64,000 nt of DNA from Escherichia coli (GCF_003334785.1 NZ_QOWV01000002.1); one strand, 5' to 3'. Positions 15,346 through 62,030 are shown, numbered from the stretch's first letter. Translations and numbers: made by a program. The notes: a model not told the origin generated them from the letters alone.

Positions 15346-15349
15346 TCTT

Positions 15350-15384
15350 CAGCCCGACGAACTGTTTCGCCGGGCTGATTTTTC
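15350..15384 (+). terminator. Hairpin plus T-run after perM in the perM/focB convergent spacer
   Basis: AGCCCG ... CGGGCT stem followed by GATTTTT. Confidence 0.5.
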
Positions 15385-16231
15385 AGGGTTCCTGACGTAA
15401 ATAAATAGCCCGATAACACATACTCACCAGCACCGCACCGCCGATAATATTACCCAGCATCACCGGGAGCAGATTGGCGGTAATAAAATGGCTGACCGTC
15501 AGTGCCGGAAAATTGTCTGCGCTACTGTGCGCCAGCTGCCAGAAGGGGGGAGGGGCGAAATGGCGAATGGCAATGGCGAACGGAATCACAAACAAATTGG
15601 CGATACAGTGCTCAAAGCCACTGGCGACAAACAGGGTGATGGGCAAAACCATGGCGACGATTTTGTCGCATAACGAACGCCCGCAATAACTCATCCACAG
15701 CGCCAGGCAAACCATCAGATTGCACATAATGCCGAGGCTGACAGATTCAGTAAATGTATGATGCATTTTGCCCTCGGCGCAGTGTAAAACCGCGACTCCC
15801 CACATCGCGTTTTCACTCATCACCAGCCCGGAAAACCAGATTAACAAACTGAAACAGGCAATACCTGCCAGATTACCGCAGGCCACCAGAAGTGCGTTAA
15901 TCAGCCAAGTTCGCCAACTAATAACGCCCCGACTTTTTGCCATCACCGTCATTACCGACGAGGTGAACAGGCTGGTGCCGCAAACCGCCAGCAAAATAAA
16001 GCCGAGTGTAAAGCAAAGGCCGCCCACCAGATGGGTTAATGCCTGTGAAGACGGGGCATCGGCGATAACGGAAAGGTAAAAAGTAAATCCGATCGCCATA
16101 AACACGCCAGCGGACATCGCCATTAAAAAGACCGACACTTTACTGCGGGCAATTTTATGGGCGGCAATCCGTTCAGCGATTGCCGCTTTTCTGGCGCTCA
16201 ACTGCAAGTCGAAAGAGAGTTTGTTTCTCAT
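15383..16231 (-). CDS. focB: Formate channel FocB (FNT family), last gene of the hyf operon
   Basis: 282 aa formate/nitrite-transporter-family membrane protein immediately downstream of hyfR. Confidence 0.9.
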   Translation of the reverse strand: MRNKLSFDLQLSARKAAIAERIAAHKIARSKVSVFLMAMSAGVFMAIGFTFYLSVIADAPSSQALTHLVGGLCFTLGFILLAVCGTSLFTSSVMTVMAKSRGVISWRTWLINALLVACGNLAGIACFSLLIWFSGLVMSENAMWGVAVLHCAEGKMHHTFTESVSLGIMCNLMVCLALWMSYCGRSLCDKIVAMVLPITLFVASGFEHCIANLFVIPFAIAIRHFAPPPFWQLAHSSADNFPALTVSHFITANLLPVMLGNIIGGAVLVSMCYRAIYLRQEP

Positions 16232-16252
16232 GCATACTCCTGCAAAAGCAGA

Positions 16253-18265
16253 TTACAACACCTCGCGAACCGAGATCCCCAGCCGCTGCATTCGTGACAG
16301 CAGCGTGGTGCGCTTCATCCCTAATCGCGTCGCTGCGCCACGGGGCCCGGCAACAATGCCATTGGTTTCTCGCAATACCTGAACAATGCGCTGACGTTCT
16401 TCTTCGTCATTCTCTGGCGTCGTCGGGTGCAGTAACTGCGCCATTGAACTGCGAAGCGCTGAATCTTCATTTAGCGTCGGCAGTAAACGGCTTTGTCGGA
16501 CATTTAGATGTAAATTCAGACTGTTACCACGAGTCAACAGTACCGCCCGCTCAATCACGTTTTCCAGCTCGCGCACGTTGCCCGGCCAATCCCACGACAT
16601 CAACTGGCGTAGTGCCTCGGTCGGGATGGCGTCAATTGCGCGATTCATATGGCGCGCCATTTTTTGCGTGAAATGTTTTGCTAAAAGAGGGATATCTTCC
16701 GGACGGTCGCGTAGCGGCGGCAATTCCAGTGGGAAGACATTCAGGCGATAAAAGAGATCGCTGCGAAACTGGCGATCTTCAACCATTTGCCACAAATCAC
16801 GGTTGGTGGCGGCAATGACTCTGACATTCACCGGGATCGTTCTACTCCCGCCGAGACGCTCAATCTCCCGCTCCTGCAATACGCGCAGCAGTTTAGGCTG
16901 AAGTTCTAACGGCAGATCGCCAATTTCATCGAGAAACAACGTGCCGCCATCGGCAATTTCAAAACGACCACGATGGGTATTAATCGCACCAGTAAACGCC
17001 CCTTTGTCATGACCGAATAACTCACTTTCCAGAAGACTGGCGGGGATGGCAGCGCAGTTGATTTTGACCAGCGGCTTGTCGCGTCGCGGGCTAAGTTGAT
17101 GGATCGCTCTGGCGATCACCTCTTTGCCAGTTCCGGTTTCACCACAAATCAACACCGTACTGTCGCTCTTCGCCACAATATCTACCTGCTGGAGCAGGTC
17201 TTCCATTGCCTGGCTTTGATAGATAATGTCACCGATGCCCAGATTCGAAAGGAGCTGCTCGCTAAGCTGGTGGTTTTCTTGCTGCAAACTTTCCTGCAAA
17301 TCGGTCATGCTACGCCAGGCATCGGCATTGCCAACGGCAATAGCGATGCGATCGGCTATGTGTTGTAGTAGCTGGCAGTTTTCCTCACTAAAGAGAGTGG
17401 AAGAGGTATGCGCCAGCAACAATGCACCCGGTGTATGGTTGCCAAAGGTAAGCGGTATAAGGAGCGCAGATTCGCAGCCGTTAGATGCAAGTAAGAGTAA
17501 TAACGGGTCGCGTTGCCAGAGAAACAGATCATCTGCACGGTGCGTCAAGGTCGGTTGTCGGGTTTGTAGCGTTTGTGTCAGCAATACACTTTCGCCAGGC
17601 ATACAGCGTGGCAGACACGCACAATGTGAGGCAGAAAGATCGCTGCACCACAGGCTGAACTTCTCGTTCTTTCGATGATCGCCCAGTACCATACTGACTG
17701 AAGCCAGACCGAAAAAATGATGGATCTCACGAGCGACGTCAGCGATCAGATCGTCGAGATCAAGATGTGACAGCACTGCATTAGTAATATCAACCAGTAC
17801 CCGATGATGATCGCGATCTTTCTCCAGCAAACGCAGCGCCACCTGCTGTTCTTCATCATTGAGCCATGATTGCAGAACCGGGGTGATTATCCGCGCCAGC
17901 CAGTTAAACAGTGTGCAATCCTGGGAAGTAAAACGACTGCCGTGGGTGCGAATAAAGCGTAGCTCCGCCATTCCACTACTGCCGAGAAGGACGGCGTGAC
18001 GCGAATAATCGACCATCTCGCCCTGATACTCTGTTGTTGCCGTCACATCGCTGCCATCATCATGGTAGCGGTAATAGAAGTTGCTTTTGAGAACATGCAG
18101 TTCAATAAGTTGTACCGGGCTGAACGGCGGCGGCAGCGGGATGAAGGCGCGTAATAAAGACGCCTTGCCGTGTTTCTGTGCTAACCGCTCCGCGAGCATT
18201 CCGTTTACCGCTTCAATTGTTATTCCTTGTGGCGGGGCAAACATCGCCTCGTCTGACATAGCCAT
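16253..18265 (-). CDS. hyfR: Sigma-54-dependent transcriptional activator HyfR (FhlA paralogue)
   Basis: AAA+ sigma-54 interaction domain (GETGTGKE Walker A, GAFTGA motif in [15 protein letters not shown]), N-terminal GAF-like region, C-terminal HTH. Confidence 0.9.
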
Positions 18266-18294
18266 CAACAGTCCTTATTAATGAGAAATCCTTC

Positions 18295-18708
18295 TCACGC
18301 AATTTTTCTGGCCATCAGATAGATGGCCGGTTCCTGCACAATTTCATCCAACAGATGAATGAATTGAATGCTACGCGCCTGCCACACAGACGTCGCGTCA
18401 TCCGCCAGTGGCGCGAATGCCCGGGTCAACAGGGCGGTGTGGCTGGCGTCAATAACAATCTCACCAAAAGTCATCACCCCCAGCATCTTACGTCGGGCTT
18501 GCTCCTCTTCGACCAGTGCAAGCCAATCTTCGTATTCCGTCAGTGGGCAGCGGAAGGCGACATTCAGACAATCAATCACGCCAACGTGATGGCCGATAGC
18601 TAGCGAGTAATACATTACCTGAGAGCTGTGTTCCGGCATCTCGTCGCTACTGGCGACAAACTTTTTTCGCAGCGTCCAGAAAACAATTTCCCCGCACTCT
18701 TCAGTCAT
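18295..18708 (-). CDS. hyfJ: Hydrogenase-4 maturation/assembly protein HyfJ (HycH-like)
   Basis: 137 aa from [17 protein letters not shown]; the ORF track is extended by 21 codons. Confidence 0.8.
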
Positions 18709-19459
18709 GTAACCCCCGGAGTACGCGAAAGAGTTGCTGAACGATACTATTGAGACGTGGATCGTCGGCATCGCGCAACCAGGTGTTAACCCGATTTCCT
18801 GTAGGATCGTCGCTTAAATGGCGCAGGAGCCGATCGCAAATTTCTCGCCCCTGACGATAGCCCGCCAGCCGCCGCGCTTCTCGCTCAATGGCGATACGCT
18901 GTGATGGCGGGATCTGCGGCCACAACGGTTGCATAGTCACCCCGGTGGGATCGCGATAATCCACAGCGTGAATCTTCTGTTGCAGCAAACCGAGCGCCAC
19001 GGCGAAACCGTGAATGGTGGCGGCCGGTGTTGGCGGGCAGCCGGGGATCCAAACATCAATGGGGACAATGGTGTCGCTACCGCCCCAGACGCTGTAGAGA
19101 TCGTGGAAAATACCGCCGCCGACACCGCACGCGCCGTAGGAAACACAAATTTTATGATCGGGGGCAGACTCATACGCCCGAAGTGCAGGCATACGCATCG
19201 CCCGGGTGACTGCGCCAGTAAATAACAAAATATCGGCGTGACGCGGTGATGAAACAACCTTAATGCCAAAACGTTCTGCGTCGAATACTGGTGTAATGGC
19301 AGCAAAAATTTCGATTTCACAGGCGTTGCAGCCGCCGCAATCGACGCGATAAACGTAAGCCGAGCGACGGATATCCTGTAGCAAATGCCGCTTCATCTTT
19401 TGCGTTTGCTCGTCCAGCGTGATGGGCTGGCTGACATGTTGTGTAAGCACTGGACTCAT
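18701..19459 (-). CDS. hyfI: Hydrogenase-4 small subunit HyfI (NuoB-like)
   Basis: 252 aa; NuoB-type Cys pattern ([16 protein letters not shown]). Confidence 0.9.
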
Positions 19460-20001
19460 AGCTGCTCCTTAGCCACCAGCAGTACATCTGTATCGTCGTT
19501 GATCAGCGTCGCGCGTTGTTTGCATTCCGGGCAGACGCTCGCTTGCGCCCACAACATTTCGCGGTTTTGTGGCGCATTTTGTTGCTGTGCTAACAATTCA
19601 GCAGCCAGTGCGATGGTTTTTTGCGGGGCAAACGGGCGTTCGCAACGGCTGCAACGTTGTAGATGGAACGTCGCGCGGGTATAGAGATCGGCTTTATTGG
19701 TGACGGTCAGTTCAAAGTTATTGGTAAGCTGGATGGCTCTGGTCGGGCACACTTCTTCACAACGTCCGCAGTAAATACAACGCCCCAGATAGAGCTGCCA
19801 GGTGCGCGAATTTTGCTGGTCGTCGGTCTGGATAGTCAGCGCATTTGCCGGACAAGCACAGGCGCAGGCACCGCAGGCAATACATTGGCTGGGCATCAGG
19901 TCCGGTTTTCCGCGAAAGCCAGGGCTGACCTCCAGTGGCGCGAAGGGATATTTCACCGTCGCGGTTCCGGCGCGCATAATAGTTTTCAGTAACTTCAGCA
20001 T
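19456..20001 (-). CDS. hyfH: Hydrogenase-4 2x[4Fe-4S] ferredoxin subunit HyfH
   Basis: 181 aa with CxxCxxCxxxCP motifs ([24 protein letters not shown]). Confidence 0.9.
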
Positions 20002-20010
20002 CTTCTGTCC

Positions 20011-21678
20011 TTACTTCAGCGGCGAACGGTTACGATCAATGCCGTAGCGTTCGATCTCTTTATACGGCACGGTTTTTGACTGGCGCTTGCGCACATCTAC
20101 CAGCGTCACACGGTCGGTACAGGAGTAGCAGGGATCAAGGCTACCGATAATCAGCGGTGCGTCAGAAACGGTATTGCCGCGCAGCATGTAACGCAACACC
20201 GGCCAGTTGGCGTAGGTGGCGGCACGGCAGCGCCAGCGGAACAATTTTTGGTTATCACCGAGCATGCTCCAGTGCACGTCTTCACCGCGTGGCGCTTCAA
20301 CAAAGCCCAGCGCGAATGCGTGAGGTTTATAGCTAAAGCCTTCGGTCAGCAGTGGGGTATCCGGCATGTTGTCGAGGGCAAATTCCAGCATTGCCAGCGA
20401 ATCAAACGTCTCTTTGACACGGACCATCACGCGGGAGAAAACATCGCCGCCGGTAAAGGTAAACAGTGTTTTTGGAATATTGCCGTAGTCGGCGTAGGGG
20501 TGATCAAAGCGCAAATCACGGGCGATTTGTCGGTCGAGAATGCCAATGCCCTGAGTGCGTTGTTCCATATTCGGCGTAGCAAGCAGCATCTCTACCAGCT
20601 CCGACACGTCGGCGCGCATCTCGCGCACCAGTTTCAGCGTTTGCAGACGTTGCTCTTTGAGAATATCGCGGCGAACACCACCAATCAGATTCAGACCGTA
20701 GGTTTTACGCGACCCGATCAGCAATTCCGCCATCGTCATCGACTTTTCCCGCACGCGGAAAAATTGCATAAAGCCGGTATCAAAACCAACGAAATGGCAG
20801 GAGAGGCCAAGGTTAAGCAAATGACTGTGTAGCCGTTCGACTTCCAGCAGAATCGAGCGAATAGTATGTGCTCGTTGCGGCACCTCAATCCCCAGTGCAT
20901 TTTCAACCGAATTGGTATAGGCCACACTGTGGGCAAAACCGCAAATCCCACACACGCGGTCCGATAAGAAGGTCACTTCGTTGTAGCCCATCCGCGTTTC
21001 TGCCAGTTTCTCCATGCCGCGATGGACATAAAACAGGCGGTAATCAGCATCGACAATTTGCTCGCCATCCACAAACAAGCGGAAGTGACCCGGTTCATCG
21101 GAGGTGATATGCAGCGGGCCGACAGGGATCACCCGCGCATCGCTGTTGCCCTCATTGATAAACGGATACGTTTCGGAATCAGTCGTCGGTTCAGGGCGCA
21201 GTCGATAATCCATCGCATCTTTGCGCAGCGGATGCATATCTTCCGGCCAGTCATCGGGCAACACCAGGCGACGCTGATCCGGCAGGCCAACCGGAATCAG
21301 CCCGTACATATCGCGAATTTCTCGCTCGCCCCAGACCGCGGCAGGGACGCGCGGTGTGACTGACGGAAACTCCCGACTGTCGGCATCGACCAGCGCCTTC
21401 ACCACAATCCAGCATTTTTCGGCCCCTTCCATTGAAAGGGCATAATAAACCGCGTAATGACCGTTAAGTGTCCGCTCGTCGTTGCCAAACAGGACCGGAA
21501 GCCAGCCATCATGTTGATAATAAAGATACTGTACAACGTCAGGCAGCAGATTGATTTTCACCGTAATGGTGACCTGTTCAGGCGTTTGTCGCTCTTCATC
21601 CAGCACCGCGCCGGGGAACTGCGTTTTCAGGGCGGCGAGAATCGCTTCGCCACGATTTGACGATGAATTAACGTTCAC
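20011..21678 (-). CDS. hyfG: Hydrogenase-4 [NiFe] large subunit HyfG (NuoD-like)
   Basis: N-terminal Ni-binding [11 protein letters not shown] and C-terminal DPCYSCTDR; start called at the GTG giving [14 protein letters not shown] (555 aa) with a GGAG RBS, overlapping the hyfF stop. Confidence 0.88.
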
Positions 21679-23248
21679 TGTGTTTCTCCGAAACAGATGC
21701 GGTGCCTGAAGGCAAAAAATCATGCCAGGTGCTACGTTGTGCAGGCAGATCGTGCGTCCCTGAGAGGACTATAGTGGAAGCGCCCGCCAGGATCCTGATG
21801 ACAGGTTGTGGAATATGCGTTCCCATCGCCAGCATCATGACCAGCAGAATCACCATTGGCGAGGTGGTCAACCAGCCGAGATCACCCCGGTTAACGGCCT
21901 GCGGCGGTTTCGCCATTAACACCCGCGCAGCCATCCGTACCAGGCCCGCCAGCACCAGCGTTAACAGCAATAACAGCAGGACGATAATCAGCAGGTGATT
22001 ACGTGCCAGTCCGGCGGTAATGGTCATAAATTCGCTAAGAAAAATGTTGAAGGGCGGCATCCCTGCCAGCGCCAGCGCACCGCCGCCAAACAGCACGGCG
22101 GTAAATGGCATGATTTTGAGCATCCCACAGACGACGTTGAGATCGCGCGTGCCGTACTTGAGCAGTACATTGCCGGAACCGCAGAACAGCAGCGTTTTTG
22201 CCAGACTGTGGTTTAAGATGTGCAGCAGCGCGGCAAAAATTCCCAGCGGCCCGCCAATGCCTAGCTCCACCGCGACCAGCCCCATGTTCTCCACGCTGGA
22301 GTACGCCAGCAGACGCTTAATGTCCCGCTGTACCAGAATGAAAAATGCCGCCACGGCAACCGACAACATGCCGAAGATGAGCAACAACCGGTTGGGGAAA
22401 TCGCTGCCGATGGCTTGGCAAATAATGATGTAATAGCGAATCAGCACCAACAGCGCGCAGTTCAGCAATACGGCGGAGAGCAGGGCGCTGACCGGACTCG
22501 GCGCTTCACTGTGAGCATCCGGCAGCCAGGCGTGCATGGGAAATAGCCCGGTTTTGGTACCAAAGCCAATTAGCAAAAACACAAAGGCCAACAGCATTAA
22601 TGTTGGGTCAAGCAAGGACGATTGCTTAAGAACCTCGCTCCAGAATATCGCCATTTCTGCCTGCGGCATAACGCTGGCGGCGTTGGCGTATACCAGCACG
22701 GTACCGAACAGACCAAAAGCGACACCAACAGTACAAATAATGATGTACTTCCATGCAGCTTCCAGCGATGAACGCTGACCGTAAATGCCTACCAGAAACG
22801 CCGAGCTTAAGGTGGTGGCTTCGATCGCCGCCCACATCACAATCAGGTTATTGCTGGTAACAACCAGCAGCATGGTGAACAAAAACAGATGGAAGAAACC
22901 GTAGTAATCGCACAGCGTAACGGGTGAAAGCTCGCCGTGTGCCACTTCATGACGCATGTAGCCAATCGAGTAAATACCGGTGAGAAAGCCAATCACACCA
23001 AGAATGGCGAGGAACAAACCGCCCAGACCATCAATATGAAGCCACAGTCCCGCAGCGAATATTTCTCCTGCATCAGCGGCAGTTTGGACCACCCAGAGTG
23101 CCAGAATCAGCAGCAGTATGATCCCTAAGCTATGTAATACGGTCACCGTGCGAGTCGCAGAAAGTCTCCGTTTCCGGCAGGCAAAACAGAGCAGCGAAAA
23201 AAGCAGCGGCGTGAGCAGGAGTAAAGCGAACATCACAGAATAACTCAT
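21668..23248 (-). CDS. hyfF: Hydrogenase-4 membrane subunit HyfF (NuoL/M/N antiporter-like)
   Basis: 526 aa polytopic membrane protein of the complex I antiporter family. Confidence 0.9.
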
Positions 23249-23252
23249 CTCA

Positions 23253-23903
23253 TTATCCCTTCAGCGCGGTCAAGTTGTTCACGTCCAGCGTGCCGTGGGT
23301 ACGCCATATTTTTCTTGCCAGTAACACCATCACAATGACGGCGAAGATGGCGTCGGTAGCGATACCTATTTCCACCAGTTCCGGTGCTCGCCAGGCAAGA
23401 AGCGCCAGCACCAGATGGGAGCCGTTTTCCATCAGGCAGTAACCAAAAATTTGCCGCAGGATATTGCGCTGGCTGACAATGCACAGCAGGCCAAGCAGAA
23501 AATGACCTAACGCTACCGCCAGCGCCGGTTTCAGCCCGGTAGCCATCGGTAGCTTCACGGGCTGAACGACAAATGCGCAAAGCAGGACAATTAACGCCGC
23601 GAGCAGTGCCATCATTGCCGGACCGAATAACGCTTTTTCCGGGATGTTCTGGGGAATATTTCGTGCAGCGTAAGTCATGATTAACGGTACCAGCAGCACT
23701 TTGGTGATAAAGGCGCTGGCGGACCAGATCAGCAGTTGCTCTGCGGCGAACAGGCACGAGAGAGTGGCGAAAATAGACACCAGCACCAGTGACTGGCAGG
23801 CGTAAAATCCGCATGACAGGCGATAGCTTTTGACGCTAATCACAAACAGCGATGTCAGCATCATCAGTCCCGCCAGATTATTTACGATCATAGAACCGGT
23901 CAT
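23253..23903 (-). CDS. hyfE: Hydrogenase-4 membrane subunit HyfE
   Basis: 216 aa hydrophobic protein between hyfD and hyfF. Confidence 0.85.
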
Positions 23904-23914
23904 TCATCATCTCC

Positions 23915-25354
23915 TTACTGCAACCAGGTCGCGGCGATTACGCTGGAAATCAGCGACATCACAATCAGTACAATCAACACCAGGCGCATTGATCCTGGCA
24001 GCGGTGCGGCATCGGCGACGGCCTCGCTCGGTTTGCCAGGCACAACGCGACCAAACCAGCGAATAAACCAGGCGAAACTGGCGACCGATTCAATCATCAG
24101 AAGAATCATGGCGGGCAGCAGGATCCAGTACTCCACTGACAACGCAAAACCGGCAGCAAACAGCGGGAATTTACTGAAGAAGCCGTTGAACGGCGGCACG
24201 CCGGTAATCGCCAGCGCTGCCACGCAGAAACCCACGCCTGGCAACGGCAGGGTGTGCAATACGCCACGCAGACGCGGCAACAAGCGCGTGCCGCAGCTGT
24301 AACTCAGCGCACCTGCTACAAGGAAAAACAGGCTTTTAGCGAACGCGTGGTTGACGATGTAGGCGATGCTGCCCTCCAGCGCCAGCCGCGAGCCGAAGAT
24401 GGAGAGCGACAAGCCGAAGAACATCCAGCCAAGTTGAGTGATGGTCGACCAGGCTAGCAACCGCTTCATATCCTGCTGTGGCAAATACATCAGAAAGCCA
24501 TAAAGAATGGTGACCAGTGCCATGACCATGCCAACGCCGCCAATCACATGCGGGATATTGCCGCCGTCGATAATAGCGCGGGCAAAAATGTAAACGCCCA
24601 CTTTCACCATCGATGCGGCGTGGAGATAGGCGCTGATCGGTGTTGGCGCTTCCATTGCGTCCGGTAGCCACGCTTGCATCGGTAGCTGGGCCGATTTCCC
24701 CCACGCGGCAAACAGGATGCCGCCATAAACCAGATAACGTGCGTCGCCGTGTAACTCGCTCATCGCGCTAAGCGCAAACGTTCCGGTCTGCAAAAACAGC
24801 GTGGCGGCGGCAAGATACAACCCCAACGAGCCGATATGAGTGATAAGTAACGCTTTTAGTGCTGAACGCTGCGCTTTATCGCTCTGGTAATAACTGATCA
24901 ACGCCCAGGAGCAGCCGCCTGTAATTTCAAAAAACAACAACTGACCGAGCAGCGTCGAGGAGAGTACCAGTCCCGCCATCGCGCCGATAAACACCAGTAA
25001 AAATGCGTAATAACGATTCGTGCCGTTATGCGGGTGTTCGCGATTTTTATCCGTCAGATAACCCGTGGAGTAGATCGTGACCAGCAAACCGAGAAACACC
25101 ACCACAAACAGAATCAGCGTACTCACGCGATCAATGACCAGGCCAAACAACGCCACATCCCCCACGTTGACCAACGTCAACGTGACGGCAACTTTATCGG
25201 CCTGATAAAACGCGGAGATCAGTGACAACATGCACAGCGTGGTCAGCGCGGCGAACAAAACCCCCCATTCGGCGGCCCGACGTTGTGGCGAAAACGAAAC
25301 GACCAGTGCGCCGATAAAAGGCAGCAATAACGTCGTCAGAGCAAGATTTTCCAT
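23915..25354 (-). CDS. hyfD: Hydrogenase-4 membrane subunit HyfD (NuoL/M/N antiporter-like)
   Basis: 479 aa antiporter-like membrane protein. Confidence 0.9.
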   Translation of the reverse strand: MENLALTTLLLPFIGALVVSFSPQRRAAEWGVLFAALTTLCMLSLISAFYQADKVAVTLTLVNVGDVALFGLVIDRVSTLILFVVVFLGLLVTIYSTGYLTDKNREHPHNGTNRYYAFLLVFIGAMAGLVLSSTLLGQLLFFEITGGCSWALISYYQSDKAQRSALKALLITHIGSLGLYLAAATLFLQTGTFALSAMSELHGDARYLVYGGILFAAWGKSAQLPMQAWLPDAMEAPTPISAYLHAASMVKVGVYIFARAIIDGGNIPHVIGGVGMVMALVTILYGFLMYLPQQDMKRLLAWSTITQLGWMFFGLSLSIFGSRLALEGSIAYIVNHAFAKSLFFLVAGALSYSCGTRLLPRLRGVLHTLPLPGVGFCVAALAITGVPPFNGFFSKFPLFAAGFALSVEYWILLPAMILLMIESVASFAWFIRWFGRVVPGKPSEAVADAAPLPGSMRLVLIVLIVMSLISSVIAATWLQ

Positions 25355-25370
25355 ATTCCGTCAGTGCTCC

Positions 25371-26318
25371 TTACAGACCGGTTAACCAGAAGACCCATGC
25401 AAGCGCAGCAAGGCTGAAGCCAAGCCAGGTCACATGGTGAATGAGTAAAAAACGCCCGCGTGCCAGCGTGTTTTCTGCGATTGAGGCCAGTACAAAAATC
25501 AGCAAAACCTTGAGCAGCGTAACGACAAGTGAAGTCAGCAGGCAGGCGAGAGAAAGTTCTTGCGCGCGCCCAAAGGGTAGAAACAGGGCCACAAACAGTG
25601 ATGCCATCACGACCTGTTTCAGCCCCAGCCCCCATTTCGCTAGCGCCAGCCCGGCACCGGAATATTCGGTCAGCGGGCCTTCCTGTAATTCCTGTTCTGC
25701 TTCAGCAACATCAAAGGGAATTTTTCCCATCTCAATGAAGCAGGCAAAACCACAGGCCAGTAACGCCAGTACGGTGGTTAGCGGCGAGTTCCAGCCCATC
25801 GCCAGCGTATTGCTGATCATCTCGATATGCGTGGAACCTGCTATCAGCGCCAATACCAGCAGTGAGAGAATAAGCATTGGTTCGACCAGAATGCCGAGCG
25901 TCAACTCGCGACTGGCACCGACTCCCGCAAACGGACTTCCGGTATCCAGCCCGGAAAGAGCAAAGAAAAAACGAAACAGGGCAAGAAGATAGATAAGGGT
26001 GATCAGATCGCCGCCGCCCGCAAAAGGGGAAACGGTAATAAACAGTGGTAAGGCCATCGCCAGCACCAGCATGCTGCTGATTAATACCCACGGCATCAGG
26101 CGGAACATCAGACCTGAAGATGTCGGCGCAACTTCCTGGCGTTTAAACAGTTTGTGGATATCGCGATAATCCTGCCAGATCCCCGGCCCGCGGCGGGAGT
26201 GCATACGCGCGCGTATCTGCCGGGAAATACCCGTAAAAAGTGGGGTTAGCATCAGCAGAATCACGGCCTGTGCTAACGCAAAAATGACCAGATATCCGTC
26301 GCAAAGAGTTTGTCTCAT
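25371..26318 (-). CDS. hyfC: Hydrogenase-4 membrane subunit HyfC (NuoH-like)
   Basis: 315 aa from MRQTLCDGYLVIFALAQAV; NuoH-like membrane protein. Confidence 0.88.
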   Translation of the reverse strand: MRQTLCDGYLVIFALAQAVILLMLTPLFTGISRQIRARMHSRRGPGIWQDYRDIHKLFKRQEVAPTSSGLMFRLMPWVLISSMLVLAMALPLFITVSPFAGGGDLITLIYLLALFRFFFALSGLDTGSPFAGVGASRELTLGILVEPMLILSLLVLALIAGSTHIEMISNTLAMGWNSPLTTVLALLACGFACFIEMGKIPFDVAEAEQELQEGPLTEYSGAGLALAKWGLGLKQVVMASLFVALFLPFGRAQELSLACLLTSLVVTLLKVLLIFVLASIAENTLARGRFLLIHHVTWLGFSLAALAWVFWLTGL

Positions 26319-26328
26319 GGTGATTTCC

Positions 26329-28347
26329 TTAGACGGCAATAGCGATTAGCAGCACAACCAGTGCGGCGACCACATACAGGCAATAGAGACGAAAGTCGCC
26401 GCTTTGCAGATGCTGTATTTCTTTGGCCAGCCGTTGGGTGGCGCTCACGATGGGGCGGATCACCCGCTCATCCCAGAAGGGTTCTGTGCTCTGAGCCCTG
26501 GCGGTGACGTGCGCAAGACCTTTATTTAGCCTCAGCGTAGGGTCGAGCTGTTGTCGTAGACGAAATAGCGCAGAAAAGACCACACGCAGCGGCTGCATCA
26601 CGCCATTGCCTGACGGGGCCATCGCATTTTCCCAGCCGTAGCCGCATGCCCAGGCATCTCCTGTGCGACGAAACGCTGCGCGGCGCGAACGACACCACAG
26701 CCAGTAAAGGCCAGGCAGCAAAGGCATCGCCAGTAGTAACAGCAACAGTAATGAGGGGGTGACCTGTGTATGAAACGTGCCGGGTACAAGTGCTATTCCG
26801 CTGGCGACAGTGGCGGGAGGGGTATTGGTAAACGCATGGGCAATATGCATTATCTTCGGTGCCAGCCAACTGGCACTAAGCGCAATTAATACGCAGAGTG
26901 CCGCGAGCAGTAGCATGGCGACGATCATCGTATTTGGCACTTCCTGTGCCTCTTCAGCGTGTGTACTGCGCGGCGCACCACAGAAAGTAATACCGTACAT
27001 TTTTACGAAGCACATTACTGCCAGCCCACCAGTGACTGCCAGCATTACCATAGCAATAGGACCCGCAAGTTGTAGCGCTACGGCTTCCACACGACTTAGT
27101 GAGAACAGCGACTGCCAGGTGTACCATTCGCTGATAAAACCATTCAGCGGAGGAATGGCTGATATCGCGAGGCAACCAATCAGGCATGCTGCGGCTGTCC
27201 ACGGCATCCGTTTCGCTAGTGCCCCCATTTTTTCCATGTCGTGGGTATGCAAACGCGAAATAATCGCTCCCGCGCCGAGAAATAGCAGCCCTTTGAACAG
27301 CGCATGGTTGAGCAGATGAAACAGTGCGCCGAGCAGTCCAACCACGGTGAGCAGCGGGTCGTGCAGTGACAGACCGACCATCGCCACACCGACTGCCAGC
27401 AAAATAATGCCGACGTTTTCGACGGTACTCCAGGCCAGCAGCCGTTTGATATCCTGTTCCGCCAGCGCATATAGCACGCCCAGGAGCGCGGAGATTGCGC
27501 CGATCGCCATCACCAGAATGCCCCACCACAGAGGCAAACCCGTTTGCGCCAGCAGATCCATCGCTACTTTCAGGATGCCGAAAATACCTATTTTGACCAT
27601 TACGCCAGACATCAACGCCGAAGCGTGCGATGGTGCGGCAGGGTGAGCGCGCGGCAACCAGCTGTGCAACGGCATCATCCCGGCTTTCGCGCCAAAACCG
27701 AAAAAGGCCAGCAGGAACACCGCCGACGCCAGCCCCGGAGAAAGTGAAAGCGTGCGGAAACTGGCAAAATCGAGGCTGCCGCTTTCGCGCCCCATCAGCA
27801 AGAAGGCGATCATTATCAGCACCGATCCGGCGTGGGCGATAAAAAAGTAGAGCATGCCAGCGTTGATCGACGTTTTATCCTGCCTGGCAATGACCAGAAA
27901 CCAGGAAGACAGCGACATCATTTCAAACAGCACGATGAACCAAAAAGCGTTGTCCATCACCAGCAGGGCAACCATCGATGCGATGAAAATATTCATAAAG
28001 AAGCCCATCGCCGCCGCGCCTTTGCCCTCGTATTCGCGCATATAAGTCAATGAATAGAGAGAACAAACCACCACCAGCAAGGAGATAACCAGCACCATAA
28101 ATGCCGAGAGGCTATCCATTCGCAGGGTTAAATCGGCAAATTCAAAAGGGGTGGCAAAACGGGCGACTAAAGTTACACCAGCATGTAATTGCGTAATTCC
28201 GCTGATGATGCCAATCACGCCGCCCACCAGCGATGTGATGCCGGAAAGCTTAATAGCCAGTCTGTCCAGACCGAGTAAAAACAGCGAAGCCAGACTAGCA
28301 AACAGATAGAGAATCAGCGACCAGGTTAATAATTGCAGGGCATCCAT
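26329..28347 (-). CDS. hyfB: Hydrogenase-4 membrane subunit HyfB (NuoL/M/N antiporter-like)
   Basis: 672 aa antiporter-like membrane protein. Confidence 0.9.
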   Translation of the reverse strand: MDALQLLTWSLILYLFASLASLFLLGLDRLAIKLSGITSLVGGVIGIISGITQLHAGVTLVARFATPFEFADLTLRMDSLSAFMVLVISLLVVVCSLYSLTYMREYEGKGAAAMGFFMNIFIASMVALLVMDNAFWFIVLFEMMSLSSWFLVIARQDKTSINAGMLYFFIAHAGSVLIMIAFLLMGRESGSLDFASFRTLSLSPGLASAVFLLAFFGFGAKAGMMPLHSWLPRAHPAAPSHASALMSGVMVKIGIFGILKVAMDLLAQTGLPLWWGILVMAIGAISALLGVLYALAEQDIKRLLAWSTVENVGIILLAVGVAMVGLSLHDPLLTVVGLLGALFHLLNHALFKGLLFLGAGAIISRLHTHDMEKMGALAKRMPWTAAACLIGCLAISAIPPLNGFISEWYTWQSLFSLSRVEAVALQLAGPIAMVMLAVTGGLAVMCFVKMYGITFCGAPRSTHAEEAQEVPNTMIVAMLLLAALCVLIALSASWLAPKIMHIAHAFTNTPPATVASGIALVPGTFHTQVTPSLLLLLLLAMPLLPGLYWLWCRSRRAAFRRTGDAWACGYGWENAMAPSGNGVMQPLRVVFSALFRLRQQLDPTLRLNKGLAHVTARAQSTEPFWDERVIRPIVSATQRLAKEIQHLQSGDFRLYCLYVVAALVVLLIAIAV

Positions 28348-28964
28348 TAGCGTTGCTCCTGAGTGAGGGAAAGGGGATCCTCCCCGCCATTGGCAAACCA
28401 GCTTGCGGCAAGGCGCTGTTTTTCTTTCATCTGACGTTGCAGGCTATCACCGGTGATCAGCCGTAACGCCTGATTCGGGCAAGCGCGAACGCAGGCCGGA
28501 CCTTCTGGCAAGAAATCACACAGGTCGCATTTCACCGCGACGGTCTGGACACCAGGTTCCCAGCGCAGCAAAGCATGTTGTGTTGGCGCGTTTTCTTCGC
28601 CGTCTTTGAGTGAGCCTTCAGCCTGAAAAACATATTGCGCATGGGCATTCACCGGACGGCTTCCTGAAGCGCTGATTGCGCCAAATGGGCAGACCACGGC
28701 GCAAAGCTTGCAGCCAATACAGAGGCTTTCGTTGAGTTGGATCGCATCATCCCTCTGAGAGATGGCATTGACCGGGCAGACCTGCAGGCAAGGGGCTTCC
28801 TCACAGTGATGACACACGACAGGGGCAGTGATTGTTGACGTCTTCGCCAGGGCCAGGCGCGGGTGTTGCTGTAAACCTTGCGTTTTATGCACGTCCGAAC
28901 AGGCAGCGAGACAGGTATTACATCCTGTACACCACAGTGGTTCGGCCACCACAAAGCGGTTCAT
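28347..28964 (-). CDS. hyfA: Hydrogenase-4 Fe-S subunit HyfA (4x[4Fe-4S] ferredoxin)
   Basis: 205 aa from MNRFVVAEPLWCTGCNTCLAACS; multiple CxxCxxCxxxC clusters; the ORF track is extended by 13 codons. Confidence 0.9.
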   Translation of the reverse strand: MNRFVVAEPLWCTGCNTCLAACSDVHKTQGLQQHPRLALAKTSTITAPVVCHHCEEAPCLQVCPVNAISQRDDAIQLNESLCIGCKLCAVVCPFGAISASGSRPVNAHAQYVFQAEGSLKDGEENAPTQHALLRWEPGVQTVAVKCDLCDFLPEGPACVRACPNQALRLITGDSLQRQMKEKQRLAASWFANGGEDPLSLTQEQR

Positions 28965-29005
28965 GTCGGCTCCTTGAAAATGATATGAAACATTGCATTT
29001 CATAT

Positions 29006-29021
29006 TGCATAAAGGATGCCA
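29006..29021 (-). promoter_or_regulatory. Sigma-54 (-24/-12) promoter of the hyf operon
   Basis: Minus-strand TGGCATcctttATGCA matches the TGGCAC-N5-TTGCA consensus with GG and GC at the correct spacing, ~45 bp upstream of the hyfA ATG; the operon encodes a sigma-54 activator (HyfR). Confidence 0.7.
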
Positions 29022-29216
29022 TTCTGATTAACTCAATATATTCAATAAGTTATGTATTAACTGGATTCTGAACGGTACAAAAATGATGGTCATTAACGTT
29101 CAGCAAAAAATGGATTCGACACCCGTGTCGCAGGGGAAAGCGAGAATGTGATCTTGATCACGAGAAGTGAGGTATGCTGGCCGCAAGCGCAGCCAGCACG
29201 GAATGGAGCAAAGTAA

Positions 29217-37104: not shown

Positions 37105-37190
37105 CCTGGCCTGATAAGACGCGTGAGCGTCGCATCAGGCATCGTTCACCATTGCCGGATGCGGCGTTAACGCCTTATCCGGCCTACGGT
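37105..37190. repeat. REP/BIME: two inverted REP units between convergent ypfH and ypfN
   Basis: GCCTGATAAGACGCGtgagCGTCGCATCAGGC and GCCGGATGCGGCGttaaCGCCTTATCCGGCCTAC. Confidence 0.8.
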
Positions 37191-44639: not shown

Positions 44640-46619
44640 ATGAATCGTTTTATTATGGCCAACAGTCAGCAATGTCTGGGTTGTCATGCTTGTGAAATCG
44701 CCTGTGTCATGGCTCACAATGATGAGCAACATGTCCTGAGCCAACACCATTTTCATCCCCGAATTACGGTTATCAAACATCAACAGCAACGTAGTGCAGT
44801 GACCTGTCACCATTGTGAAGATGCGCCCTGCGCCCGTAGCTGCCCTAATGGCGCAATCAGCCACGTTGATGACAGCATTCAGGTCAATCAGCAAAAGTGT
44901 ATTGGCTGTAAATCCTGCGTGGTGGCCTGTCCTTTTGGTACGATGCAAATCGTCCTGACACCCGTCGCGGCAGGAAAAGTAAAAGCCACGGCGCATAAAT
45001 GCGACCTTTGTGCGGGGCGCGAAAACGGTCCTGCCTGTGTTGAGAATTGCCCGGCGGACGCGCTGCAACTGGTCACTGACGTCGCACTCTCCGGCATGGC
45101 GAAATCCCGCCGCTTGCGCACCGCGCGTCAGGAACATCAACCGTGGCATGCCAGTACCGCGGCGCAAGAAATGCCGGTAATGAGTAAAGTCGAACAAATG
45201 CAGGCAACGCCCGCGCGTGGCGAGCCGGATAAACTGGCGATTGAAGCGCGCAAAACCGGTTTTGATGAAATTTATCTGCCATTTCGCGCCGACCAGGCAC
45301 AACGGGAAGCCTCGCGCTGCCTTAAGTGCGGCGAGCACAGCGTTTGTGAATGGACCTGCCCGCTGCATAACCATATACCGCAGTGGATTGAACTGGTGAA
45401 AGCCGGAAACATCGACGCCGCCGTCGAGCTTTCTCACCAGACCAACACCCTGCCGGAAATTACCGGACGCGTTTGTCCGCAAGACCGTTTGTGTGAAGGT
45501 GCCTGTACTATTCGCGATGAGCACGGCGCGGTAACTATCGGCAACATTGAACGCTACATTTCAGATCAGGCGTTGGCGAAAGGTTGGCGTCCTGACTTAA
45601 GCCATGTCACCAAAGTGGACAAGCGGGTGGCGATTATCGGTGCAGGTCCGGCAGGGCTGGCCTGTGCGGATGTTCTGACCCGCAATGGCGTGGGGGTGAC
45701 GGTGTACGATCGCCATCCAGAAATCGGTGGCTTGCTCACTTTCGGCATTCCTTCTTTCAAACTGGATAAATCCCTGCTGGCACGCCGTCGGGAAATCTTC
45801 AGCGCGATGGGGATTCACTTCGAACTCAATTGTGAAGTGGGTAAAGATGTCTCTTTGGATTCGCTTTTGGAACAATACGACGCGGTCTTCGTTGGCGTAG
45901 GCACTTACCGTTCCATGAAAGCGGGTTTACCCAATGAAGATGCGCCGGGCGTTTATGACGCGCTGCCGTTCCTCATTGCCAACACTAAACAGGTGATGGG
46001 GCTCGAAGAGCTACCGGAAGAGCCGTTTATCAATACCGCCGGACTTAACGTCGTGGTACTGGGCGGCGGCGACACCGCGATGGACTGTGTGCGTACCGCA
46101 CTGCGCCACGGCGCGAGTAACGTCACCTGCGCTTATCGTCGTGATGAAGCTAACATGCCAGGCTCGAAGAAAGAAGTGAAGAACGCCCGCGAAGAGGGGG
46201 CCAACTTCGAATTTAACGTCCAGCCGGTGGCGCTTGAGCTGAATGAACAAGGTCACGTCTGCGGGATTCGTTTCCTGCGCACGCGTCTTGGAGAGCCGGA
46301 TGCCCAGGGGCGTCGGCGTCCAGTGCCGGTGGAAGGCAGTGAATTTGTCATGCCAGCCGACGCGGTGATTATGGCGTTTGGCTTCAATCCGCACGGGATG
46401 CCGTGGCTGGAGTCGCACGGTGTAACGGTAGACAAATGGGGCCGCATCATCGCGGATGTGGAAAGCCAGTACCGTTACCAGACCACCAATCCGAAAATCT
46501 TCGCTGGTGGTGACGCCGTGCGTGGTGCGGATCTGGTGGTTACCGCAATGGCAGAAGGACGTCATGCGGCACAGGGGATTATTGACTGGCTGGGGGTAAA
46601 ATCAGTCAAATCTCACTGA
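44640..46619 (+). CDS. aegA: Anaerobically expressed Fe-S/FAD oxidoreductase AegA (N-terminal ferredoxin domain fused to a GltD-like domain)
   Basis: 659 aa; multiple CxxCxxCxxxCP clusters at the N-terminus; dinucleotide-binding GxGxxG motifs (IIGAGPAGLA, VVLGGGDTA). Confidence 0.88.
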   Translation: MNRFIMANSQQCLGCHACEIACVMAHNDEQHVLSQHHFHPRITVIKHQQQRSAVTCHHCEDAPCARSCPNGAISHVDDSIQVNQQKCIGCKSCVVACPFGTMQIVLTPVAAGKVKATAHKCDLCAGRENGPACVENCPADALQLVTDVALSGMAKSRRLRTARQEHQPWHASTAAQEMPVMSKVEQMQATPARGEPDKLAIEARKTGFDEIYLPFRADQAQREASRCLKCGEHSVCEWTCPLHNHIPQWIELVKAGNIDAAVELSHQTNTLPEITGRVCPQDRLCEGACTIRDEHGAVTIGNIERYISDQALAKGWRPDLSHVTKVDKRVAIIGAGPAGLACADVLTRNGVGVTVYDRHPEIGGLLTFGIPSFKLDKSLLARRREIFSAMGIHFELNCEVGKDVSLDSLLEQYDAVFVGVGTYRSMKAGLPNEDAPGVYDALPFLIANTKQVMGLEELPEEPFINTAGLNVVVLGGGDTAMDCVRTALRHGASNVTCAYRRDEANMPGSKKEVKNAREEGANFEFNVQPVALELNEQGHVCGIRFLRTRLGEPDAQGRRRPVPVEGSEFVMPADAVIMAFGFNPHGMPWLESHGVTVDKWGRIIADVESQYRYQTTNPKIFAGGDAVRGADLVVTAMAEGRHAAQGIIDWLGVKSVKSH

Positions 46620-61841: not shown

Positions 61842-62030
<189 letters not shown>

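Follow-up and report, generated by a model that had tools for sequence, protein, structure and literature searches.

We analysed the hydrogenase-4 (Hyd-4) operon, hyf, in a stretch of 64,000 nucleotides of Escherichia coli DNA (GCF_003334785.1, NZ_QOWV01000002.1), referred to below as the window. The locus corresponds to the reference hyf operon, here in a K-12-like strain; it is already known and not a new locus, and all twelve of its reading frames are open. Its gene for the [NiFe] large subunit, hyfG, is nevertheless a deletion allele that has lost 48 bp and with them 16 residues kept in essentially every relative, including the equivalent of Arg395 of HycE, a residue placed in the proton pathway of formate hydrogenlyase-1 (FHL-1). 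On balance it is probable that this copy is both weakly expressed and impaired in the catalytic function of its large subunit, the loss of activity being inferred from sequence comparisons.

A derived deletion allele of hyfG

In more distantly related E. coli copies hyfG is annotated with 1716 nt, and in the window and K-12 it has 1668 nt. The encoded protein is 571 amino acids long in strain 43905, O157:H7 F6294, ECC-1470 and SW07099 and 555 amino acids long in the window and K-12. Protein alignment placed the difference in a block of 16 residues, ARDYSPVGPLIRGSGF, which is absent from the window and K-12 proteins between ...GILDRQI and ARDLRFDHP... and whose counterpart in HycE is ARDFSNVGPMVRASGH. 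When the DNA was aligned with hyfG of strain 43905 and hycE of K-12, the gap was found to be 48 bp long, in frame, and bounded by GCCCGTGATT repeats. Full-length hyfG alleles have two copies of this sequence 38 bp apart and the window has one; with the loss of 48 bp, this is the pattern that slippage between direct repeats leaves behind. Two other origins of the length difference were considered and rejected. A sequencing or assembly artefact is refuted by the presence of the exact junction, as a 44-mer, in 2,113 complete genomes. Gene conversion from hycE as the source of the long allele was discarded because many positions in the 48 bp do not match hycE and because the block is found in all other genera.

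The lost segment is highly conserved. It was present in all 116 close homologues that cover the region (73-99% identity), a set that includes sequences from Enterobacter, Yokenella, Atlantibacter, Serratia, Proteus, Morganella, Providencia, Pectobacterium, Dickeya, Brenneria, Sodalis, Gilliamella and Shewanella. Eleven of the 16 positions do not vary (ARDxSxVGPxxRxSG), and among the close homologues a gap was seen solely in sequences of the E. coli/Shigella type. Judged from this distribution, with the block in all other close homologues, the deletion is the derived state. Conservation extends well beyond these genera. Among diverse representatives (50%-identity clusters drawn from 1.8 billion proteins), the block was ungapped in 118-119 of the 123 that cover the region; the four that deviate are fragmentary or are predictions with a frameshift. 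Of the 123, 120 have the core Gly and 119 the Arg. The block also aligns without gaps to the structures of HycE (7z0s), Pyrococcus furiosus MbhL (6cfw), the MBS subunit, and ND7/Nqo4 of complex I.

A role for this segment is suggested by the electron cryo-microscopy structure of FHL-1, in which R478, D529, H284, E437 and R395 of HycE were described as a pathway that takes protons from the bulk to the canopy of the active site (PMC9474812). That pathway was reported to be conserved in formate hydrogenlyases, MBH, soluble hydrogenases and complex I; in complex I, R297 of NDUFS2 corresponds to R395 (PMC9474812). In our alignment HycE R395 corresponds to R397 of full-length HyfG, which lies inside the deleted block. 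Of the six HycE proton-pathway and canopy residues that were compared (R478, D529, S283, H284, E437 and R395), five have a counterpart in the window and the equivalent of R395 is deleted. The window protein retains the NiFe ligands C243, C246, C517 and C520, the canopy residues R464, D515 and S285, as well as H286, E423 and the cleavage-site R523. The ligand motifs of group 4a hydrogenases (RxCGxCxxxH and DPCxxCxxR) are both present, and the 32-residue C-terminal tail aligns to that of HycE. The earlier note on this DNA, made from the sequence alone, had called the operon intact. This description stands for the twelve open reading frames but not for hyfG, which is a derived 16-codon deletion allele without a proton-pathway residue, and the case is a warning that 'no frameshift' is not the same as 'intact'.

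HyfG of the window carries a second unusual feature, T321I (codon at 20716-20718). The residue at this position is Thr in 115 of 122 close homologues and Thr or Ser in most of the distant ones. As a separate observation, Ile321 was seen only in E. coli-type alleles, one of which is a full-length allele (SW07099). AlphaFold2 was run on both HyfG alleles with a 30-sequence alignment of homologues of 73-89% identity, and the mean predicted local distance difference test scores (56.6 and 58.1) were too poor to place the block or to reveal the effect of its loss. A search for a solved Hyd-4 structure returned none.

Distribution of the deletion and selection on the operon

Among 5,426 complete E. 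coli genomes, hyf is carried by 4,299 and absent from 1,127. The 48-bp block of hyfG is present in 2,007 of the genomes and the exact deletion junction in at least 2,113. In a systematic sample of 60 hyf-positive genomes, 30 were hyfG-deleted, 29 were full-length and one had a large deletion.

Several further lesions occur in the operon. A 196-bp piece of hyfD that is missing from approximately 930 genomes corresponds to a 208-bp frameshifting deletion (window 24390-24594, where the window is intact). It was found in 12 of the 60 sampled genomes and was seen in QA-1986 630 and SW07099; its occurrence on both hyfG backgrounds points to recombination within the operon or to an old polymorphism. 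A 1-bp deletion at nt 591 of hyfB (window approximately 27757, again intact) leads to a stop at codon 224, and the exact 44-mer was present in 1,264 of the 5,426 genomes. This lesion is common to three independent B1-type genomes, QA-1986 630, ECC-1470 and SW07099, as is a frameshift at nt 681 of focB. ECC-1470 and QA-1986 630 have in common a 1-bp deletion at nt 89 of hyfD that leads to a stop at codon 37 (a similar stop occurs in the error-prone SMN197SH3 assembly), and ECC-1470 and SW07099 have in common a 6-bp deletion in hyfH (nt 131-136) by which the first CxxCxxCxxxC motif loses one Cys. Among the three B1-type genomes, a frameshift at nt 434 of hyfD and a 3-bp deletion in hyfC (nt 65-67) were found in ECC-1470 only. 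In ML35 an IS4-like insertion sequence, IS421, lies at the hyfA-hyfB junction (L014 13257-14369; near window position 28347) and cuts hyfA to 603 nt; the same insertion is present in several strains that are otherwise 100% identical to the window. In hyf-negative genomes yfgO adjoins bcp with a 98-bp spacer (E. coli NGF1, L006 4562-4661) and nothing replaces the 13.8-kb operon. Loss of hyf from B2 or F/G/B2 lineages has already been published (PMC2617782, PMC6896753). The loss of hyf by several independent routes within one species makes it a clean example of ongoing operon decay. In O157:H7 F6294 and strain 43905, by contrast, each of the twelve genes is open and hyfG is full-length.

The ratio of nonsynonymous to synonymous substitution rates (dN/dS) between deep lineages is approximately 0.10-0.115 for the operon and 0.03-0.04 for hyfG, and such low values argue for a functional operon during most of the history of E. 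coli. The deletion alleles differ mutually by approximately 0.4%. Among them hyfG has approximately 5 nonsynonymous and 5 synonymous changes, compared with 3 and 30 between deep full-length lineages, a replacement share that hints at relaxed selection although the counts are too small to weigh.

These data also bear on another explanation, according to which the operon is functional and tightly regulated, the HyfG deletion is tolerated, and Hyd-4 works only under special conditions (stationary phase, particular pH, formate or osmotic stress) that escape standard assays. The twelve open frames, the preserved junctions and the operon-wide dN/dS, which is not raised on the window branch, would all be expected of such an operon, as would the retention of the NiFe ligands, the canopy residues, the C-terminal processing site and the charged residues of the antiporter-like subunits. 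Phenotypes that depend on hyf have moreover been reported in K-12 (Mirzoyan 2017 via PMC11841067; PMC10758574). However, most of the low dN/dS predates the deletion, since the deletion alleles have diverged so little, and essentially all relatives, those in enterobacteria, archaeal MBH and mitochondrial complex I included, have the block without a gap; it holds a named proton-pathway Arg. Forced expression from PT5 or Phyc also gave no H2 (PMC7654741). We therefore consider it unlikely that the deletion is tolerated in this way.

Activity of the K-12-type enzyme

E. coli Hyd-4 is poorly expressed and its function is unsettled (PMC7384014, PMC7654741, bioRxiv 10.1101/563510), in line with the description of the locus as largely silent in the earlier note. 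That description understates the case, because no H2 was produced even when expression was forced. In derivatives of K-12 MG1655 and MC4100, Hyd-4 yielded no H2 even with the Phyc or PT5 promoter, the HycE tail placed on HyfG, and extra HycI/HyfK (PMC7654741), which indicates that expression alone is not the problem. The absence of activity upon induction, which the note had named as grounds for giving up its view of the locus, is thus largely what the accessible literature reports for K-12. In the same study HycI and HyfK were interchangeable, and the HyfG alignment comprised the last 93 residues only, which falls short of the deletion (PMC7654741). Pectobacterium HyfG, which has the block, is active (PMC7384014), and so is Trabulsiella's formate hydrogenlyase-2 (FHL-2) (bioRxiv 10.1101/563510). 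The latter study referred to FHL-2 of E. coli as a 'long-standing mystery' and asked which deficiencies block its activity (bioRxiv 10.1101/563510). We found no mention of an internal hyfG deletion in the accessible literature; the original 1997 description and the regulation papers of 2002/2004 lay outside that search. To our knowledge, most work on E. coli Hyd-4 has been done on the K-12-type copy, of which Andrews et al. 1997 is said to be the original description.

[quoted passage not shown] Formate would enter through FocB or FocA and activate HyfR (and FhlA), which in turn would act on the sigma-54 promoter upstream of hyfA. Electrons would pass from formate dehydrogenase H, encoded elsewhere, through HyfA, HyfH and HyfI to the [NiFe] site of HyfG, where protons would be reduced to H2, and the membrane arm formed by HyfC, HyfE, HyfB, HyfD and HyfF could couple H2 evolution to ion translocation. 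In the window copy, slippage between the 10-bp direct repeats would have removed 48 bp of hyfG, including the equivalent of HycE Arg395. The resulting HyfG is probably catalytically dead or badly impaired, and perhaps unstable, and in combination with weak native expression this would render the operon silent in K-12-like strains. The preferred reading of an impaired large subunit fits the experiments in that the published negative results were all obtained with K-12 derivatives and in that the Pectobacterium HyfG, which bears the block, is active.

Several observations weigh against this reading. The deletion preserves the reading frame, the allele is very common, being carried by at least 39% of complete genomes, and no frameshift has arisen elsewhere in the K-12-type operon. 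The window branch has 74 synonymous and 23 nonsynonymous changes and the O157 branch 54 and 21, so that there is no excess of replacements; with the window branch faring no worse than that of O157, no long-term relaxation can be detected. The pathway through HycE Arg395 was described as 'putative', and no mutation of Arg395 was found in the accessible literature. One group, on indirect evidence, attributes H2 production and ion-flux phenotypes to Hyd-4 in K-12 derivatives (Mirzoyan 2017 via PMC11841067; PMC10758574). Finally, the lack of a hycI/hyfK-like protease gene in the operon, weak expression of hyfR, and the T321I substitution could each suffice to account for inactivity.

In a further alternative, E. 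coli hyf is inactive for reasons other than the deletion (the want of a dedicated maturation protease, deficient translation or assembly, the absence of a suitable partner, for instance HydN or a formate dehydrogenase, or low expression of hyfR), full-length alleles of O157:H7 or phylogroup D strains are equally inactive, and the operon is a decaying, species-wide relic. No HycI- or HycA-like coding capacity was found anywhere in the 64-kb window, the E. coli operon is known to be without a protease gene, and poor expression and the absent accessory gene have been listed as obstacles (PMC7384014). The multiple independent lesions and the loss of the whole locus likewise indicate that the operon is dispensable in many lineages (see also PMC6896753, PMC2617782). 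Yet supplying HycI or HyfK did not help, nor did strong promoters (PMC7654741), and O157:H7 F6294 and 43905 keep twelve open genes with a dN/dS of 0.03 for hyfG, which argues for continuing purifying selection where the full-length allele persists. A relic throughout the species thus appears improbable.

A more far-reaching proposition than impairment of this one copy is that the 48-bp deletion, shared by K-12, BL21 and approximately half of hyf-positive E. coli, is a null mutation and the main reason that Hyd-4 has gone undetected for 25 years, that lineages with the 571-residue protein and twelve open genes have a working enzyme, and that repair of the 48 bp would awaken the enzyme of K-12. 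We regard this as possible but rather doubtful. If true, O157:H7 and phylogroups like that of 43905 would possess a working and possibly energy-conserving formate hydrogenlyase-2, and energy conservation by enterobacterial FHL-2 could be addressed in E. coli itself by use or transplantation of a full-length allele. The reference K-12 copy that has been used in Hyd-4 experiments carries a derived allele of the catalytic gene, and the deletion provides a testable explanation for the inactivity of K-12 Hyd-4.

Layout of the locus and comparison with known systems

The ORF list contains twelve consecutive minus-strand open reading frames between 15383 and 29003, and the genes themselves span 15383-28964 (Table 1). 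Translation showed all frames to be open, with no frameshift or internal stop, in the order hyfABCDEFGHIJ-hyfR-focB. Copies of 100% identity that were retrieved by megablast from the 5,426 complete genomes are annotated hyfABCDEFGHIJ, hyfR and focB. Compared with b2481-b2492 of K-12 MG1655 plus the bcp-hyfA intergenic region, the locus has 4 differences in 13,834 nt (99.97% identity), namely one synonymous change in hyfC and the substitutions P66T in HyfB, T44I in HyfF and I195V in FocB; the bcp-hyfA intergenic region is the same as in K-12. The operon lies between bcp and yfgO, as in K-12, and the whole window is colinear with the reverse complement of MG1655 2,566,165-2,630,164, with 14 substitutions and no indels. 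The junctions, in operon order, measure -1, 10, 16, 11, 4, -11, 9, -4, -8, 29 and 21 nt and thus range from an 11-nt overlap to a 29-nt gap. The ORFs, the annotation transfer and the identity to K-12 bear out the earlier note in describing a complete twelve-gene locus in this order, and its mention of tight or overlapping junctions agrees with these values. Its further claims of a dedicated sigma-54 activator and formate channel and of three antiporter-like subunits were likewise confirmed by the family assignments given below.

Table 1. Features of the hyf locus in the window. Gene coordinates are those of a RefSeq annotation transferred from one 100% identical copy.
Feature	Position	Strand	Description and basis
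Inverted repeat CTGAACGGTA / TAACGTTCAG	29068..29103	-	arms of 10 nt with a 16-nt gap; lies 47-97 nt upstream of the -24 element
Sigma-54 type -24/-12 element TGGCATCCTTTATGCA	29006..29021	-	41 nt upstream of the hyfA ATG; identical in K-12
Inverted repeat ATATGAAA-N7-TTTCATAT	28983..29005	-	perfect 8-nt repeat in the leader, directly downstream of the -12 element
hyfA	28347..28964	-	205 aa, 16 Cys; electron-transfer subunit, ferredoxin-like; paralogue of HycB (50% identity)
hyfB	26329..28347	-	672 aa; antiporter-like membrane subunit; HycC-like (37% identity); NF005086, 977 bits (cut-off 667)
hyfC	25371..26318	-	315 aa; NuoH/HycD-like membrane subunit; 52% identity to HycD; NuoH match
hyfD	23915..25354	-	479 aa; antiporter-like (NuoL/MrpA-like); NF005097, 811 bits (cut-off 430)
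hyfE	23253..23903	-	216 aa; small membrane subunit specific to FHL-2-type complexes; NF008556, 369.5 bits (cut-off 136)
hyfF	21668..23248	-	526 aa; antiporter-like (NuoN/M-like); NF005041, 1175 bits (cut-off 951)
hyfG	20011..21678	-	555 aa, GTG start; [NiFe] large subunit fused to a NuoC-like domain; 70% identity to HycE; 48-bp deletion allele
hyfG deletion junction	20514..20523	-	single remaining 10-bp direct repeat GCCCGTGATT; alignment with 43905 hyfG and K-12 hycE
hyfH	19456..20001	-	181 aa; 2x[4Fe-4S] ferredoxin-like (NuoI/HycF-like); 45% identity to HycF; two CxxCxxCxxxC; NF006076, 362 bits (cut-off 270)
hyfI	18701..19459	-	252 aa; hydrogenase small subunit (NuoB/HycG-like); 62% identity to HycG; NuoB model match
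hyfJ	18295..18708	-	137 aa; HycH-family assembly protein; 48% identity to HycH; NF011664, 208 bits (cut-off 145)
hyfR	16253..18265	-	670 aa; sigma-54-dependent activator, FhlA-related; GAFTGA at 422-427, Walker B LFLDE, C-terminal helix-turn-helix
focB	15383..16231	-	282 aa; formate/nitrite-transporter-family channel (FocA paralogue); NF007261, 648 bits (cut-off 499)
Terminator-like hairpin	15349..15378	-	strong, 13 pairs (8 G-C); directly after the focB stop codon

Within the 64 kb, TGGCAYN6TGCW is matched by the -24/-12 element alone; approximately one match is expected by chance, so that its position and not statistics supports the assignment. Its first base (the 5' end), 29021, is where the earlier note had the locus end. 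The two inverted repeats that flank this promoter are possible regulator sites, and the one upstream is a candidate binding site for HyfR or FhlA.

Curated NCBIfam cut-offs are exceeded by HyfB, HyfD, HyfE, HyfF, HyfH, HyfJ and FocB. Together the operon encodes what characterizes the membrane arm of a group 4a Hyf/FHL-2 complex, that is HyfE, which has been named as an FHL-2 marker (bioRxiv 10.1101/563510), three antiporter-like subunits, and the NuoH-like HyfC. On the soluble side, HyfG matches NuoC/D and hydrogenase large-subunit models and is accompanied by the NuoB-like small subunit HyfI and the ferredoxin-like HyfH and HyfA. HyfB, HyfD and HyfF also match the NuoL/M/N and Mrp models and keep the Glu of transmembrane helix (TM) 5, the Lys of TM7 and the Glu/Lys of TM12. 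Alignment with NuoL/M/N identified the charged residues as E142, K221, K252 and E407 in HyfB, E143, K220, K251 and K395 in HyfD, and E143, K232 and E406 in HyfF, which has Asn263 where NuoM, NuoN, HyfB, HyfD and HycC have the TM8 Lys. By these residues, the Hyf membrane arm seems closer to complex I than the arm of FHL-1 is, which is the basis of the proposal of energy conservation. As a side observation, HyfF took 8 of the 23 amino-acid changes of the window lineage (G28R, H29L, T44I, V92I, V225L, A328E, T344I and V410I).

HyfR matched FhlA, NifA, NorR and PspF models with E-values of 1e-90 to 1e-192. Against the FhlA model NF011958 it scored 642 bits, below the cut-off of 830, because the first approximately 130 positions of the model are unmatched (the match covers FhlA positions 134-690 and starts at HyfR residue 101). 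With its AAA+ domain, FhlA-like sensory region, sequence motifs and a predicted cognate -24/-12 promoter, HyfR has the features of a sigma-54 enhancer-binding protein of the FhlA subfamily. FocB scored 290 bits against TIGR00790 (cut-off 232) and contains GFEHCIANLF with the central His208, as is characteristic of the formate/nitrite transporter family.

From end to end the window contains yfgH, ppk-ppx, purMN, hyf, dapA, acrD, narQ, tktB-talA, maeB and the eut operon. By coordinate transfer from K-12, aegA (b2468) lies at 44640-46619 on the plus strand, approximately 15 kb from hyf. Among NCBIfam models, HyfA best matches the ferredoxin-like N-terminal part of AegA ('formate-dependent uric acid utilization protein'), which likewise has a link to formate dehydrogenase H. 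An Rfam scan of the window gave no match inside the hyf locus; matches to naRNA4 (nucleoid-associated RNA / REP-type) above the gathering score were found at 37108-37184, on both strands, and at 61896-61977.

The K-12 MG1655 operon shares its genes, gene order, junctions, promoter region and hyfG deletion allele with the window. The full-length operons of O157:H7 F6294 and 43905 have the same twelve genes at the same bcp/yfgO site and are 97.9-98.7% identical in nucleotide sequence, but their hyfG is 1716 nt long and encodes the ARDYSPVGPLIRGSGF block with R397, which the window lacks. FHL-1 (Hyd-3; hycABCDEFGHI; 7Z0S/7Z0T, PMC9474812) has a paralogous soluble arm, with the identities listed in Table 1, and both systems have control of the FhlA/sigma-54 type. 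Unlike hyc, hyf encodes the additional subunits HyfD, HyfE and HyfF as well as its own activator and formate channel, and it is without hycA and hycI. HyfB has the TM7 Lys (K221), whereas HycC of FHL-1 has Leu208 instead, as seen in our alignment and in agreement with PMC9474812; HycE of FHL-1 retains the 16-residue block that is missing from HyfG of the window. The FHL-2 operons of Pectobacterium atrosepticum and Trabulsiella guamensis resemble hyf in their hyfA-J architecture, five membrane subunits and FdhF-type electron donor (PMC7384014; bioRxiv 10.1101/563510). They differ in that they encode the HyfK protease, are without focB, and have a HyfG of approximately 575-580 residues that includes the block, and these complexes evolve H2 whereas K-12 Hyd-4 does not (PMC7384014, PMC7654741, bioRxiv 10.1101/563510).

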